Shown here: positions 58,373 through 63,585 of the stretch, piece after piece
Layout: every line of letters starts with the position of its first letter
Numbering within the stretch: the first letter of the stretch is position 1
Source: Felixounavirus AN17P8
Sequence record: OZ035742.1
Length of the DNA stretch: 64,000 bases
Reading direction: 5' to 3' (one strand)
Program-made: the position numbers and the translations under genes
Notes under the pieces: model-generated
Database searches by the model: none
What the model saw: only the letters and a program-made list of their open reading frames with translations
Told to the model about the DNA's origin: nothing

Positions 58373-58449
58373 CTCTGTTTAGCTCAGCTTGGTAGAGCGT
58401 TCCGTTTGGGGCGGTAAGGCCGGAGGTTCAAGTCCTCCAACAGAGACCA
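58373..58449 (+). tRNA. tRNA-Pro(TGG)
   Basis: Acceptor ctctgtt/aacagag, T-arm ggaggTTCAAGTcctcc, anticodon loop ttTGGgg, CCA encoded. Confidence 0.7.
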
Positions 58450-58456
58450 AATTAAT

Positions 58457-58534
58457 GTTCCAGTAGACAAAATGGTAAAGTCACCACTCTTTCAAAGTGG
58501 ATATCTGAGGGTTCAAATCCCTTCTGGAACGCCA
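58457..58534 (+). tRNA. tRNA-Glu(TTC)
   Basis: Acceptor gttccag/ctggaac, anticodon stem ccact/agtgg, loop ctTTCaa, CCA encoded. Confidence 0.7.
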
Positions 58535-58626
58535 GTTTTGACAGAAGACCAATTACAGCAAACTTAATCTTATTCATCTGAAGGTAAATCGGACAAAGAA
58601 GAGATTTGGTCTGGTCATTAAGAATT

Positions 58627-58702
58627 GCGGGTATAGAGAAAGGGCGTCTCACATGTCTCATTAGCATGGTATCGGCAGGTTCGACTCCTGCACCCGCCTC
58701 CA
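58627..58702 (+). tRNA. tRNA-Met(CAT)
   Basis: T-arm gcaggTTCGACTcctgc, anticodon loop ctCATta; 5' boundary +/-1 nt. Confidence 0.6.
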
Positions 58703-58786
58703 AATTTACAGAAGACCGTTTACAGCAATATTTATTAAATTTTTAGCGGAAAAAATTGAAAGATACGGTCTGGTAATACTAAACAT

Positions 58787-58863
58787 GGTTAGGAAGCACA
58801 TAAGGTATGTGCGGTCGCCTGTTAAGCGAATGGCACAGGGTTCGAATCCCTGACTAACCGCCA
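58787..58863 (+). tRNA. tRNA-Asn(GTT)
   Basis: T-arm cagggTTCGAATccctg, anticodon loop ctGTTaa, CCA encoded. Confidence 0.65.
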
Positions 58864-58932
58864 AATTTAGGAGAGAAGCGATTGCTCACCGATTTGTAAG
58901 GTGCAAGTCCTTAGCCTGAATAGAAATTAAAT

Positions 58933-59020
58933 GTGTCGTTATCCCGTAGATGGTAGCGGTGGGGACTGTAAATCCCTTGTCATTGAGACTCGGTAGGTTC
59001 GACTCCTACACGGCACACCA
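58933..59020 (+). tRNA. tRNA-Tyr(GTA), long variable arm
   Basis: Acceptor gtgtcgt/acggcac, anticodon loop ctGTAaa, ~15-nt variable arm, T-arm gtaggTTCGACTcctac. Confidence 0.65.
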
Positions 59021-59025
59021 ATAAA

Positions 59026-59103
59026 GGTTATGTAGTTTAATTTGGTTAAAATACTCCCCTGTCACGGGAGATGATGAGGGTTCAAATCCCTTCGTAACCG
59101 CCA
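59026..59103 (+). tRNA. tRNA-Asp(GTC)
   Basis: Acceptor ggttatg/cgtaacc, anticodon stem ctccc/gggag, loop ctGTCac. Confidence 0.7.
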
Positions 59104-59385
59104 ATTTTGAGAGGGCTATTTAGCCCCTCCCTTAAAGAGTTCTTACGAGTATTCTTTAAAGGAGCAGAAGACCAAATTCAGCAAGAACGTATGATATTTT
59201 CAAGCCAATTTAATTTTGAAAAATTTAAAACTTGGTCTGGCTCAACAAATTTACAGAAGACCGTTTACAGCAAAACTTAAACAATCTATTTCTCGGTAAA
59301 GAAAAGGAGAAGGTTCGATTCCTTCACTCGGCAGATGTCGAGTTGGTGTAATGGTAGCACTTAAGATGATAAACAACGGTCTGGT

Positions 59386-59529
59386 AATTATCTTTGTAGA
59401 TAAGTTATTAAGCTTACCTGTGAGTATGCGACCACAAAGGGTGAAAGGGTAAATTCTAGATTTAAACCCGAAAAGTCACATCGCTACAGACCTTAAGCAA
59501 GTCTGGGTAGCTTATCTACAAAGATAATT
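59386..59529. repeat. perfect 19-bp inverted repeat separated by 106 nt, just upstream of tRNA-Lys(TTT)
   Basis: AATTATCTTTGTAGATAAG (59386-59404) and CTTATCTACAAAGATAATT (59511-59529). Confidence 0.7.
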
Positions 59530-59533
59530 TAAT

Positions 59534-59609
59534 GGAAGTGTAGCAGAATGGTGATGCGGCAGACTTTTAATCTGACAGGCGATGGGTTCGAATCCCTCCA
59601 CTTCTACCA
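59534..59609 (+). tRNA. tRNA-Lys(TTT)
   Basis: Acceptor ggaagtg/cacttct, anticodon loop ctTTTaa, T-loop TTCGAAT (weak T-stem). Confidence 0.6.
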
Positions 59610-59613
59610 ATAT

Positions 59614-59690
59614 GGTTCAGTCGCAGATAAGGTAATGCAAGGGTCTCATAAGCCCTATGAATGTGGGTTCGATTCCCATCTGAACCTCCA
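59614..59690 (+). tRNA. tRNA-Met or Ile2 (CAT)
   Basis: Acceptor ggttcag/ctgaacc, anticodon loop ctCATaa, T-arm gtgggTTCGATTcccat. Confidence 0.65.
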
Positions 59691-59691
59691 A

Positions 59692-61671: not shown

Positions 61672-62225
61672 GATACTTAAAGTATGCTTCATGGATTTTC
61701 TTAGCTTTGTTAGAGCCATTTGCAGCAATCTTAGCAGTTATCTTAGCACCTTTTGTAGTTCCATTCTACAGTGAGAAGAAAGGACACTTGCCTTTCGGGT
61801 TCAGATGGATGGAGACTTATGACAACCCAATTGATGGTGATGCAGGTCATATCAAACGATGGACTAAGATTAGAGAGATTGGTAAGCTTGGTGTCTACAT
61901 GCAGAGAGTTGGATGGCTCTGGAGAAACAAAGCTTATAACTTCTCTTACCATGTATTAGGAAGAGATGTAAAAGATGTTACTAAGTGGAAAGGTAATATC
62001 AACGTAAGTTCTAACCCTGAAGATAATCAGACTGGTTATCTCCTAATGTGGAACAGTAATGCTTGGGGGTTATTCGCTTTTGTGCCGTCAATCAAAATCT
62101 TTGGTAAACAATTTTACTGGAGAATTTATATTGGGTGGAAACTTAAAAGCGTTGTCCCAGAAGAAAGAGCATTTTCAAGGGAAAGAGTTATGTTGGCATT
62201 CTTTATTCATCCACTAAGAAAGTAA
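61668..62225 (+). CDS. membrane protein inside tRNA cluster
   Basis: N-terminal TM segment WIFLALLEPFAAILAVILAPFVVPF; 185 aa. Confidence 0.4.
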   Translation: MRYLKYASWIFLALLEPFAAILAVILAPFVVPFYSEKKGHLPFGFRWMETYDNPIDGDAGHIKRWTKIREIGKLGVYMQRVGWLWRNKAYNFSYHVLGRDVKDVTKWKGNINVSSNPEDNQTGYLLMWNSNAWGLFAFVPSIKIFGKQFYWRIYIGWKLKSVVPEERAFSRERVMLAFFIHPLRK

Positions 62226-62233
62226 AGATTTAA

Positions 62234-62309
62234 AGGGGATTAGTTTACAAGGTTAAAACCTCGGTCTTTGAAATCGAAGAAGTTGGTTCAATTCCAACAT
62301 CCCCCGCCA
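62234..62309 (+). tRNA. tRNA-Gln(TTG)
   Basis: Acceptor aggggat/atccccc, anticodon stem tcggt/atcga, loop ctTTGaa, T-arm gttggTTCAATTccaac. Confidence 0.65.
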
Positions 62310-62311
62310 AT

Positions 62312-62390
62312 GCTCCATTACTCCAATTGGCAGAGAGGCCAGACTTAAAATCTGTGTTATGTATCGGTTCGAATCCGATATGGAGTACCA
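62312..62390 (+). tRNA. tRNA with Leu anticodon TAA, short variable arm
   Basis: Acceptor gctccat/atggagt, D-loop aattggcag, anticodon loop ctTAAaa, variable arm 7 nt, T-arm atcggTTCGAATccgat. Confidence 0.55.
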
Positions 62391-62395
62391 AATTT

Positions 62396-62471
62396 AGCGG
62401 TATAGCATAACTGGCAATGCAGCAGTCTCTGAAGCTGTCCTATTAAGGTTCAAATCCTTATGCCGCTGCCA
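62396..62471 (+). tRNA. tRNA-Gln(CTG)
   Basis: Acceptor agcggta/tgccgct, anticodon stem gcagt/gctgt, loop ctCTGaa, T-arm taaggTTCAAATcctta. Confidence 0.65.
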
Positions 62472-62502
62472 CTTCTAAGGATTCTTACGAGAGTCCTTAA
62501 AT

Positions 62503-62578
62503 GTGGCCTTATCATAAATGGTAATGACCCATGCTGTGAACATGGTTTATACGGGTTCAAATCCCGTAGGTCACCCCA
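62503..62578 (+). tRNA. tRNA-His(GTG)
   Basis: Acceptor gtggcct/aggtcac, anticodon stem ccatg/catgg, loop ctGTGaa, T-arm acgggTTCAAATcccgt. Confidence 0.65.
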
Positions 62579-62584
62579 ATTTAT

Positions 62585-62660
62585 AGTCCAAGTAGCTTAT
62601 ATGGTTAAAGCGCGTGTCTGAAAAACATGAGAAGAGGGTTCAAATCCCACTGGACTACCA
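62585..62660 (+). tRNA. tRNA-Phe(GAA)
   Basis: D-arm gctt/aagc, anticodon stem cgtgt/acatg, loop ctGAAaa, T-loop TTCAAAT; acceptor boundaries ambiguous by 1 nt. Confidence 0.55.
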
Positions 62661-62676
62661 ATTTCAAAGGTGCTTA

Positions 62677-63411
62677 ATGAAAGAGATGACAGAACAAGGT
62701 AAGGAGATTTTTAATCTCTTAAAAACCGGTAAAGGGTTTTCTAACCCACTTATTACTGGTGCAGCAGTTCTCGGTGGAACCGTAGCTGCCTCTACATCAC
62801 TTGTAAGCTCTATTAGCTCTGTAACAGACCCTACAATGAAGGAGAAGCTTGTTGCTGCTGGACTTACAACAGTCCTTCTAAACAGCTTTACAACAAGCCT
62901 GACAAGCACTACAGCAACTACTAAGACCCTAACAGACTATGGTCAAAAATCTATTGATGAGTTTTCATCACGTATGCAGGTAGCAAAGGGGTATTCCAAT
63001 GTTATGGGTGCAGCAGGAGAACAAGTTGGTTGTACACCATTTAGTGGTATTATGGGTGTTGCTACAGAGTATGGCCAGCAAGCTATTGACACGATTAACA
63101 GCACACTAGACAGTGTTAACGGTGTGTTAAGTGACTTACAAGACGCTATTGATAAGGGTCTTGATACTGTTTCTGATTTAGCTAATCAGGCTGTTAGTAA
63201 GATTAATGAAGGTATCTCAAAGATTACAGCTTATGCAGATGAAGTTGTGCAGATGATTGAAGAAGAAGCTGCCCTTATTGCAGAGTACCTTAAAACGAAT
63301 ATCAATGGGTTCTTAGCAGGTATCTTACCAGACTGGTTTGATGATGCTTGTAAAACTGGTGTAATTGACACCATTGCAACACCAGAAATGAAGAGCGCAT
63401 TACAGAAATAA
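62677..63411 (+). CDS. Ser/Thr-rich protein inside tRNA cluster
   Basis: Start trimmed to ATG 62677 (RBS aaagg) to clear tRNA-Phe; low-complexity S/T-rich region then alpha-helical C-terminus. Confidence 0.4.
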   Translation: MKEMTEQGKEIFNLLKTGKGFSNPLITGAAVLGGTVAASTSLVSSISSVTDPTMKEKLVAAGLTTVLLNSFTTSLTSTTATTKTLTDYGQKSIDEFSSRMQVAKGYSNVMGAAGEQVGCTPFSGIMGVATEYGQQAIDTINSTLDSVNGVLSDLQDAIDKGLDTVSDLANQAVSKINEGISKITAYADEVVQMIEEEAALIAEYLKTNINGFLAGILPDWFDDACKTGVIDTIATPEMKSALQK

Positions 63412-63412
63412 T

Positions 63413-63505
63413 GGAAGATTAACCCTAAAAGGTAAGGGAGCAGTTTGCTAAACTGCCAGTAGCTGAGAAATCGGTGTACCAGTTCAAGTCTGGTATCTTC
63501 CTCCA
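63413..63505 (+). tRNA. tRNA-Ser(GCT), long variable arm
   Basis: Acceptor ggaagat/atcttcc, anticodon stem gcagt/actgc, loop ttGCTaa, ~21-nt variable arm. Confidence 0.65.
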
Positions 63506-63509
63506 ATTT

Positions 63510-63585
63510 GAATCCGTGACAGAAACGGCTATGTGCCTGTCTGCAAAACAGGTTTATAAGGGTTCGAGTCCCTTCGGATTCTCCA
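63510..63585 (+). tRNA. tRNA-Cys(GCA)
   Basis: Perfect acceptor gaatccg/cggattc, anticodon stem cctgt/acagg, loop ctGCAaa, T-arm aagggTTCGAGTccctt. Confidence 0.7.

Follow-up and report, generated by a model that had tools for sequence, protein, structure and literature searches.

The transfer RNA (tRNA) island of Felixounavirus AN17P8 (sequence record OZ035742.1) raises the question of what occupies the spacers between its tRNA genes. The stretch analyzed, referred to here as the window, is one strand of 64,000 nucleotides, and the island lies on its plus strand at positions 58373–63585. A first-pass annotation of this DNA had described a tRNA cluster with embedded protein genes, internal promoters and long structured spacers. 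As written, that observation is correct but ordinary: the island is already known and annotated in GenBank for Felix O1-type phages, and is in itself routine. The structure of the spacers is borne out, but not their reading as punctuation, since a conserved small-RNA module recurs in four of them. The coordinates considered at that stage excluded an upstream gene, which encodes a protein with a predicted Ro60 fold, and the link between small RNAs and protein was thus missed. The modules belong to a conserved RNA family with a covarying stem, a strand-specific co-location with DUF2828 genes and tRNA arrays, and a YrlA-like tRNA mimic in one member. Together with the protein, they probably represent a new variant of a phage Ro/Y-RNA-like system that is widespread and unannotated.

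The module begins with AAG and the 5' strand of a covarying 6–7 bp stem, continues with a single-stranded UUACAGCAA and an interior of variable sequence, and ends with the 3' strand of the stem and CUG. It is found in four spacers, all on the plus strand, which we call Y1 to Y4. The four have in common the combination 5'-ACAGAAGACCnnUUACAGCAA...nnGGUCUGGUAAU-3', which occurs nowhere else in the window, and the module motifs cluster at 58.5–59.4 kb only. The spacers also fold alike, with a short outer helix, a small bulge, a 7–8 bp helix with covarying variable positions, and the single-stranded UUACAGCAA; the inner stems read, for instance, AGACCAA/UUGGUCU and AGACCGU/ACGGUCU. Y1 (58545–58614; AAG-ACCAA-UUACAGCAA...UUGGU-CUGG) scores 42.5 bits with the covariance model R1 described below, and with its outer helix, which extends to 58539–58618, it fills the Glu-Met spacer. 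Y2 (58712–58773; AAG-ACCGU-UUACAGCAA...ACGGU-CUGG) scores 46.5 bits and, with an outer helix that extends to 58706–58777, fills the Met-Asn spacer. Y3 (59168–59240; outer helix to 59162–59244) has the same fold and carries the motif variant AUUCAGCAA; UUCAGCAA variants are common among the non-seed R1 matches elsewhere. A hairpin and a promoter lie between the Ro60-fold gene and the modules, which have tRNAs on both sides. In GenBank records, Y1–Y4 are either unannotated or labelled ad hoc, for example as "hypothetical protein" or "tRNA-pseudo".

Y4 (59257–59384) has the module ends around a tRNA-like interior, as judged from its fold and covariation. The interior is formed, in this order, by a V hairpin, a T arm (GAAGGUUCGAUUCCUUC, residues 59309–59325), a capped acceptor-like hairpin (59326–59343) and a D arm (GGUGUAAUGGUAGCACU, 59345–59361). 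The T and D loops are invariant in related phages, and the acceptor-like stem is wholly replaced with its pairing preserved (ACUCGGC/GUCGAGU, ACACG/CGUGU and ACCCUUC/GAAGGGU); RNAalifold identifies compensatory changes at 13 of 23 pairs. The order of domains is the one published for the YrlA Y RNAs (Chen et al. 2014, PMC4201824; Rfam RF02553), which share with Y4 the V hairpin, the T arm, the capped acceptor-like hairpin and the D arm; in these RNAs too, the loops of the T and D arms are invariant and the acceptor-like stem varies freely. YrlA loci, moreover, encode several RNAs each, a single one of which is tRNA-like, as at the window locus. Y4 is encoded on the same strand as the Ro60-fold gene, approximately 1 kb further downstream. 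Phage records that contain it number 252, similar to the approximately 250 that carry the protein at an identity of at least 80%, and it is almost never annotated.

The upstream gene (56791–58206, plus strand) encodes a protein of 471 amino acids in which Pfam recognizes DUF2828 and the vWA domain DUF7788, and which belongs to PHROG 850, an "RNA-binding protein" family. The vWA domain contains a DxSxS MIDAS motif (D279/S281/S283) whose residues are all invariant. An AlphaFold (AF2) model built from 32 homologues has a pLDDT of 85, and the top 11 matches of this model in a Foldseek search against the PDB are all full-length Ro60/TROVE proteins, with TM scores up to 0.65. The best match is Ro60 from Thermus phage phiLo, and the matches include Xenopus and human Ro60 and Deinococcus Rsr. 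According to the model, the protein thus has the Ro60 fold, a ring of HEAT repeats with a C-terminal vWA domain that carries the MIDAS. Homologues were found in 709 phage records with hosts from many phyla, and DUF2828 proteins have been reported from plants and mimivirus-like contigs. A search with the conserved tRNA block as query returned no Ounavirinae records lacking a DUF2828 gene. In the PhageMaP preprint, gp130 of phage Bas63 is described as a Ro60-like protein that counters the Ppl defence and is encoded directly upstream of the tRNA stretch; its knockout was reported to lose protection against this system, and the authors offered the speculation that "some tRNA genes are possibly Y RNAs". 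This phenotype suggests a possible role in host-phage conflict. Directly upstream of the Ro60-like gene there is an open reading frame (ORF) of 123 amino acids (DUF5681, PHROG 4114; 56338–56709), and a strong promoter-like site (56722–56751) lies between the two.

The same layout is found in distant phages. Klebsiella phage FBKp34 and Mycobacterium phage LeBron, whose proteins are 51% and 31% identical to that of the window, each carry directly after the DUF2828 gene several modules composed of a stem plus ACAGCAA, one of which encloses a permuted tRNA-like domain. Across 84 distant loci, the gene strand carries 170 copies of ACAGCAA and the opposite strand 50, compared with approximately 44 expected. 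A test for stem partners comprised 83 of these loci and the 56–64 kb region of the window, with 156 copies of the motif. The exact reverse complement of the 7-mer just upstream of ACAGCAA lies within 220 nt in 70 of them (45%), compared with 8.5% of random positions and 11% of opposite-strand copies, and the stem sequences involved are mutually unrelated. The tRNA-like domain was searched for by a structure-only scan rather than with a covariance model of Y4, and MAFFT misaligned the Klebsiella and LeBron domains. With strict settings for the T arm, the capped hairpin and the D arm, the scan retrieved 12 domains on the gene strand and one on the opposite strand; CAGCA is located 26–44 nt upstream in 11 of the 12.

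The covariance model R1 was built from 27 short modules, and its matches in the window are confined to the island. When applied to 81 phage loci (E ≤ 0.01), it yields 64 matches, 39 of them non-seed, with at least one match in 51 of the loci. In an independent set of 80 loci, taken from assemblies of bacterial and archaeal genomes, R1 gives another 41 matches, 38 of them within approximately 700 nt of the DUF2828 gene. All matches in both sets lie on the gene strand, which gives a total of 105 co-oriented with the gene and none opposed to it. The modules occur in 2–5 tandem copies that have diverged in sequence.

A motif-first scan of IMG/VR was performed with the pattern AAGGNTNNTTACAGCAA-N(30-60)-CCTGT, which leaves four of the six stem pairs unspecified. 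The scan returned 66 matches, and the complete 6-bp stem is formed in 56 of them. Among these stem-closed matches, 24 have a DUF2828 gene on the same strand no further than 1.2 kb away, 30 have a same-strand tRNA or transfer-messenger RNA (tmRNA) within 15 nt, and 9 more have tRNAs within 2 kb; a DUF2828 gene, tRNA neighbours or both accompany 54 of the 56, and 2 have neither. The ten stemless matches serve as an internal negative control: none has a nearby DUF2828 gene, and nine are without a tRNA within 2 kb. Only 0–6 nt separate a module from the flanking tRNAs (or a tmRNA) in several unrelated phages, an arrangement also seen for Y1 and Y2. This arrangement supports, but does not prove, a release of the modules by tRNA-processing enzymes. 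By starting from the gene, 16 of 18 loci are found to have no tRNA or tmRNA within 3.5 kb, and the link between gene and RNA is therefore not a by-product of tRNA islands.

Variants of this arrangement were observed in individual loci. Two "tRNAs" of 114–115 nt, one in FBKp34 (locus L035, 8003–8116) and the other in locus L066 (3097–3211), score 47.7 and 49.2 bits with the Rfam tRNA model and carry a long insert with a UUACAGCA(A) motif. The Klebsiella FBKp34 element is a complete tRNA-Asp(GUC) with an insert of approximately 37 nt between the D and anticodon arms. Both elements look like chimeras of a tRNA and a small-RNA module. The same kind of island encodes a tmRNA in three environmental phages (L207, 1159–1600; L232, 3495–3936; L067, 7736–8185). 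A module lies 3 nt past the tmRNA and 3 nt ahead of the next tRNA in L207 and L232, and in L067 the tmRNA is 2.8 kb downstream of the DUF2828 gene. Many marine and environmental phages (group L045–L100; for example L056, 2153–2390, and L057, 4984–5220) have a fixed pair of RNAs directly after the DUF2828 gene, formed by a module of approximately 57 nt and an RNA of approximately 235 nt that is closed by GGAUCG/CGAUCC and contains the same ACAGCAA motif. AAGCAA is often repeated in the loops of the short modules of this group.

These data are consistent with the following scheme. The island, with 26 canonical tRNAs and a deviant tRNA-Trp, would be transcribed from sigma-70-type promoters as multi-gene precursors, in which four to five small non-coding RNA genes, each with the terminal module, would be interleaved with the first tRNAs. 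The interior of Y4 holds a circularly permuted tRNA-like domain, as in the bacterial YrlA Y RNAs. The small RNAs would be freed from the precursor by the tRNA enzymes of the host, RNase P and 3' processing enzymes, and would associate with the upstream Ro60-fold DUF2828/vWA protein to form a phage Ro/Y-RNA-like particle, which may serve in RNA quality control or counter-defence. The stem plus UUACAGCAA may constitute the site recognized by the protein, and the variable or tRNA-like interior may act as a tether for other factors, by analogy with the Ro60/Y RNA/PNPase particles and YrlA. Binding of the small RNAs to the Ro60-like protein is inferred here. As a whole, the interpretation of the locus as a tRNA island with interleaved module RNAs that partner the Ro60-fold protein in a Ro/Y-RNA-like particle is one that we hold with reasonable confidence.

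Several observations weigh against this interpretation. Pfam assigns only DUF2828 and DUF7788 to the protein, with no TROVE domain, and a sequence search of the PDB with the 32-sequence profile reaches Ro60 at a non-significant E-value of 0.81; the fold comparison was needed because sequence methods miss the relationship. The Rfam YrlA model RF02553 has no match to Y4 even at E ≤ 10, and the Y4 sequence does not contain GNCGAA(N)G, the motif published for Ro binding. The R1 score of Y3 is weak (15.4 bits, E = 0.26). The seeds of R1 were picked for perfect stems, which renders the pairing counts of the seeds circular; these counts were not used, and only the enrichment tests and the non-seed R1 matches are taken as evidence. 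Finally, 24 of the 30 tRNA-abutting modules have no DUF2828 gene in the stretch of the locus examined, and for modules without a nearby gene it is located elsewhere on the same contig at 4 loci only. The partner of the RNAs could therefore be something else that is tied to tRNA arrays.

This last point leads to an alternative in which the modules belong functionally to the tRNA array, either as aids in the processing or folding of the precursor or as decoys for host nucleases that target tRNAs, and in which the proximity of DUF2828 is secondary. In its favour, 30 of 56 stem-closed modules have a tRNA or tmRNA on the same strand at a distance of 15 nt or less, 24 of these without the gene in the stretch; one module member has a tRNA-like domain, and some relatives have the motif inserted into a full tRNA. 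Against it, 15 motif-first loci combine a module with an adjacent DUF2828 gene and contain no tRNA at all, and 16 of 18 gene-first loci have no tRNA or tmRNA within 3.5 kb. All 105 R1 matches are, in addition, co-oriented with and close to a DUF2828 gene, and four of the "tRNA-only" loci are contigs that have the gene elsewhere. We therefore consider this alternative unlikely, although it deserves more weight than the two that follow.

The modules could also be cis-acting elements instead of stable RNAs, that is, operators in untranslated regions (UTRs) of the DUF2828 mRNA that mediate autoregulation, or cleavage signals of the pre-tRNA. In most loci outside the Felix group, they do flank the DUF2828 gene directly, where UTRs are expected. 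In the window, by contrast, a hairpin and a promoter separate them from the gene and tRNAs bracket them, and their ends coincide with tRNA processing sites in other phages. The 2–5 tandem and diverged copies, the ends flush with tRNAs and the elaborate tRNA mimic of Y4, with its invariant tertiary-contact loops, are hard to reconcile with a mere operator, and we regard a purely cis-acting role as improbable. A last explanation would treat the spacers as inert, composed of decayed tRNA genes and of repeats left by recombination and the traffic of homing endonucleases. The tRNA islands of these phages are indeed recombination hot spots, where close relatives differ by indels and by inserted HNH and GIY-YIG endonuclease genes, and the spacers S6 and 58864–58932, described below, do resemble remnants. 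This explanation is contradicted by the comparative data: the motif plus stem persists in enterobacterial, mycobacterial, clostridial and marine phages whose stem sequences have diverged completely, and the strand bias is complete (105 versus 0). It is accordingly given hardly any credence.

A comparison with known systems places the Ro/Y-RNA-like interpretation in context. Loci of YrlA Y RNAs with Ro60/Rsr resemble that of the window in the presence of an RNA gene beside a gene for a Ro60-fold protein and in the paired 5' and 3' ends of the RNAs. They differ in that the window protein is a DUF2828 and not a Pfam TROVE protein, in that the window RNAs are embedded in a tRNA array, and in that the GNCGAA(N)G motif is replaced by the stem plus UUACAGCAA. 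Thermus phage phiLo likewise encodes a Ro60-fold protein and two adjacent small RNAs, Yrl1 and Yrl2 (PMC12135203), but these have the canonical CGAA motif in a bulge, lack UUACAGCAA and are not part of a tRNA array. The tRNA cluster of T4 includes rnaC and rnaD (species 1 and 2), small stable RNAs of unknown function that are co-transcribed and processed with phage tRNAs. They were rejected as relatives of the module, having no R1 match (the best score in the T4 region, 13.9 bits, is located elsewhere), and the 6-kb tRNA region of T4 that was inspected has no DUF2828 gene, unlike the window.

The closest resemblance in RNA architecture was found outside phages. The Class I RNAs of Dictyostelium (Kjellin et al. 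2021, PMC7919456) are 42–65 nt long and have a 6-bp terminal stem of free sequence with an invariant 5' G, whose partner is the C in the conserved CUGU end. Their AAG start is conserved as well, and the 5' strand is succeeded by a motif of 11 nt. Kjellin et al. regard the class as restricted to Dictyostelia and of unknown function. The phage consensus, from 67 modules and from 50 non-seed matches, reads (A)AG-R-N-U-N-N-(U)U-(A/U)CAGCAA ... N-N-A-N-Y-C-U-G-(U/A), with a median span of approximately 56 nt. The stem G and the C are each present in 63 of the 67 modules and the G of CUG in 65. In the 50 non-seed matches, the three positions of AAG are conserved in 40, 40 and 42 and those of CUG in 42, 43 and 49, and CAGCAA is invariant or nearly so. 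The 11-nt motif of Class I, CCUUACAGCAA, has its counterpart beside the 5' strand, with UUACAGCAA present in Y1, Y2 and Y4. The Rfam model Dicty_Class_I_RNA (RF01414) aligns with Y4 over its full length (GaUcuC-CUUACAGCAA...GagAuC-UG). Full-length alignments were obtained for four independent phage modules, and for one of them, unrelated to the window, RF01414 is the top-scoring family. Scores are 19.7 bits for Y1, 20.5 for Y2 and 23.4 for this unrelated module. The phage modules score 13.2–23.4 bits overall, below the RF01414 gathering score of 41.5, which none reaches in 18 module-rich loci, and because this curated threshold is not attained the phage RNAs are not filed as members of the family.

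The two groups of RNAs nevertheless look alike in every descriptive feature, namely the terminal stem of approximately 6 bp, its G-C pair, the AAG start, the CUG(U) end, the (CC)UUACAGCAA motif and the variable interior, and the parallel between the module RNAs and this orphan eukaryotic class appears striking. Class I genes differ in having their own DUSE promoter and no flanking tRNAs, and no link to a Ro60-like protein has been reported for them. DDB_G0281243, an uncharacterised protein, is reported as one of four pulled down with a Class I RNA; a search of the literature provided no domain information on it. Nothing in the papers searched connects Class I RNAs, DUF2828 and Ro60 with one another or gives a name to the phage RNAs described here. 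It is conceivable, though we put it forward only tentatively and would not call it probable, that RNAs with a stem plus UUACAGCAA are cognate ligands of DUF2828 Ro60-like proteins across the whole family, and that Class I RNAs are the eukaryotic members of the same ribonucleoprotein, possibly partnered by DDB_G0281243 or another DUF2828 protein. An RNA class that has been an orphan for 20 years and a large orphan protein family would then gain one shared function, and the resemblance would point to a specific protein as partner of these abundant eukaryotic RNAs and to a biochemical role for them.

On the phage side, the Ro/Y-RNA-like interpretation would imply that small RNAs of an unannotated family are present in hundreds of sequenced Felix O1-like phages, some of them used in therapy or typing, as well as in many other phages rich in tRNAs, and that these RNAs pair with an unrecognised branch of Ro60 proteins. 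Excision of the RNAs by means of their tRNA neighbours would explain many of the "spacers" in phage tRNA arrays. Because the knockout of the Bas63 protein was reported to lose Ppl protection, the small RNAs would be immediate candidates for the missing co-factor.

The coding capacity of the island depends on an unusual element. The first-pass annotation had folded by hand 27 tRNAs that cover all 20 amino acids. ARAGORN identifies 26 tRNA genes on the plus strand at the same coordinates, representing 19 amino acids; the 27th, a Trp-like tRNA at 60233–60315, is rejected by the software and yet conserved, and all 20 amino acids are served only if this non-canonical tRNA-Trp is functional. The element (plus strand, CCA anticodon) had been described as carrying an excess of about 8 nt after the acceptor stem and ahead of the D arm, a correct description of a gene that programs fail to recognize. 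The connector between the two stems, GAUGUUAAG, has 9 nt instead of the usual 2, and the anticodon stem contains a C31.A39 mismatch. Standard cloverleaf geometry is thus not attained; ARAGORN makes no call on the native 60233–60315 sequence, RF00005 does not match it, and the highest Rfam score in this interval is 23 bits, to tRNA-Sec. When 5 or 6 connector bases are deleted in silico, ARAGORN calls a tRNA-Trp(cca) with the 5' end proposed at first pass. The four helices are maintained, the CCA anticodon is placed in a 7-nt loop, and the 3' CCA is encoded. In 14 variants from related loci, the D stem changes from CUC/GAG to CAC/GUG, the anticodon stem from ACGG/CCGU to UAAG/CUUA, and the T-stem pair 50-64 from G-C to U-A, so that pairing is kept through compensatory changes; the connector GAUGUUAAG and the anticodon loop CUCCAAA do not vary. 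The invariance of the insertion (approximately 6–7 nt) argues for selection. The element also carries A1-U72 and G73, which, with the CCA anticodon, are the identity elements of E. coli TrpRS.

We conclude that 60233–60315 is probably a selected and functional tRNA-Trp with an unusual acceptor/D junction. The element could, on the other hand, be a pseudogene or a tRNA-like decoy that does not decode, in which case the island would serve just 19 amino acids. Its rejection by both ARAGORN and the Rfam tRNA model, the 9-nt connector with the C31.A39 mismatch, and the label "tRNA-OTHER, pseudo" given to the wV8 counterpart in GenBank point in this direction. None of the GenBank Felixounavirus records inspected names the gene tRNA-Trp. 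The compensatory substitutions in the D, anticodon and T stems, the retention of the CUCCAAA loop and of the A1-U72 and G73 determinants, and the acceptance by ARAGORN once the invariant insertion is removed speak against it, and we hold this possibility to be rather unlikely, if still a serious one. As a deviant yet conserved gene, the tRNA-Trp would be a natural test of the changes tolerated at the acceptor/D-arm junction. Phages of the wV8 type (L002, NC_012749, 3386–3875) have a different tRNA-Trp(CCA) allele of 71 nt, also deviant, whose D arm is short. The gene next to it, in the place of the tRNA-Ser(tga) of the window, encodes an HNH endonuclease. The Trp slot seems to be a cassette that is exchanged along with the homing endonuclease.

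The remainder of the island agrees with its relatives. The region 58300–63700 is 94–97% identical across its full length to other Felixounavirus genomes, among them Escherichia typing phage 1 (97%), wV8, KhF1/3, the LF82/LF110 phages and Salmonella FSL SP-012. The island of Felix O1/wV8 has the same genes in the same order at this identity, with no tRNA difference from the window, and the GenBank annotation of Escherichia typing phage 1 comprises these 26 tRNAs and the three ORFs, ordered as in the window. With 58300–63700 as query, 406 phage records match, 233 of which cover at least 80% of it. The Rfam tRNA model RF00005 reaches its gathering score for 24 of the 26 tRNAs and misses Met-CAT (58626–58702) and Tyr (58933–59020). 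A scan of the window with all 4227 Rfam families gives only tRNAs at gathering scores, and in 25 related loci no non-tRNA family does so except one tmRNA. Weak matches to tmRNA and permuted tmRNA at 59709–60013 (15.7–29.2 bits against a gathering score of 47) were discarded as noise.

All tRNA genes are on the plus strand. The first two, tRNA-Pro(tgg) (58373–58449) and tRNA-Glu(ttc) (58457–58534), score 57.7 and 60.4 bits in Rfam. They are followed by a tRNA with a CAT anticodon (Met1, 58626–58702), found by ARAGORN only and under the Rfam threshold, and by tRNA-Asn(gtt) (58787–58863), tRNA-Tyr(gta) (58933–59020) and tRNA-Asp(gtc) (59026–59103), called by ARAGORN. The rest were identified with both programs: tRNA-Lys(ttt) (59534–59609), a second tRNA-CAT (Met2, 59614–59690), tRNA-Ile(gat) (59692–59767), tRNA-Arg(tct) (60014–60090), tRNA-Ser(tga) (60329–60418), the group Leu(tag), Lys(ctt), Ala(tgc), Gly(tcc) and Thr(tgt) (60673–61080), the group Val(tac), Leu(caa) and Arg(acg) (61177–61411), the group Gln(ttg), Leu(taa) and Gln(ctg) (62234–62471), tRNA-His(gtg) and tRNA-Phe(gaa) (62503–62660), and tRNA-Ser(gct) and tRNA-Cys(gca) (63413–63585). 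Met1 is atypical, with a pyrimidine-C mismatch at 1-72, U37 and a D stem of 3–4 bp; its T stem shows compensatory changes among relatives, and it may be an initiator, elongator or Ile2-type tRNA. ARAGORN agrees with the hand-made assignment of two CAT tRNAs, of isoacceptor pairs for Lys, Arg, Gln and Ser, and of three short Leu tRNAs (78–79 nt each). The 1-nt ambiguity noted at the edge of tRNA-Phe recurs between ARAGORN and Rfam (62585 versus 62586).

The three embedded protein genes (61429–63411) had also been recognized and correspond to real families. Two overlapping ORFs of 80 (PHROG 14202) and 185 amino acids (DUF7338) occupy 61429–62225 on the plus strand, and an ORF of 244 amino acids (DUF7217, PHROG 2114) occupies 62677–63411 on the same strand. 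The start of the latter is most likely 62677 rather than 62614, and the annotation of typing phage 1 has an identical start.

A consensus scan located a putative sigma-70-like promoter, TTGACA-18-TAAAGT with a TG, at 58317–58346 (plus strand), 27 nt 5' of the first tRNA. The internal promoter proposed at 59783 holds as the best sigma-70 match of the region (59783–59811, plus strand; TTGACA-17-TATAGT, 11 of 12 positions). As a class, promoter-like sites are not enriched over shuffles (20 versus 15.6 ± 4.4). Hairpins with the shared loop TTCTTACGAG had been noted too, and this loop sequence has exactly two copies in the 64 kb, each in the loop of an island hairpin. The first, hp1 (59130–59162, plus strand; fold z = -3.75), has the invariant loop UUCUUACGAG, lies directly 5' of Y3 and is preceded by a G+C-rich hairpin (59109–59129); its stem varies among relatives through the series A-U, G.U, G-C. 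The second, hp2 (62476–62499, plus strand), has the loop UUCUUACGAGAG and lies between tRNA-Gln and tRNA-His. The proposal of TCTTAGAA and TTCTAAGA as recurring spacer motifs did not hold: only 2–3 of the 10 copies in the window are in or beside the island, the motif is not enriched, and its copies in island spacers fall within the stems of two long hairpins, which stand immediately ahead of tRNA-Arg(tct) and tRNA-Leu(tag). These are a perfect 16-bp hairpin (59976–60010, plus strand; fold z = -4.6) and a hairpin of approximately 30 bp (60581–60671, plus strand; z = -3.4). Near-perfect long hairpins (59976–60010, 60581–60671 and 62476–62499) thus stand in front of the first tRNAs of sub-blocks, Arg-tct, Leu-tag and His, and are candidate RNase III-type cleavage sites in the precursor.

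Three other spacers on the plus strand are structured. S5 (59390–59526, 137 nt; fold z = -4.75) has a 20-bp closing helix and a mini-hairpin, AGAC-CUUAAGCAA-GUCU, which resembles a minimal module; it is kept in Felixounavirus loci and absent from more distant relatives. S6 (61085–61171; z = -3.3) contains CUGAAGACCGUAACAAAU, possibly the decayed 5' half of a module, for which the matching 3' strand is not present. The 69-nt spacer between tRNA-Asn and tRNA-Tyr (58864–58932; z = -2.6) is absent from Escherichia typing phage 1, where the gap measures 9 nt, and includes a T-arm-like remnant, GGUGCAAGUCC.

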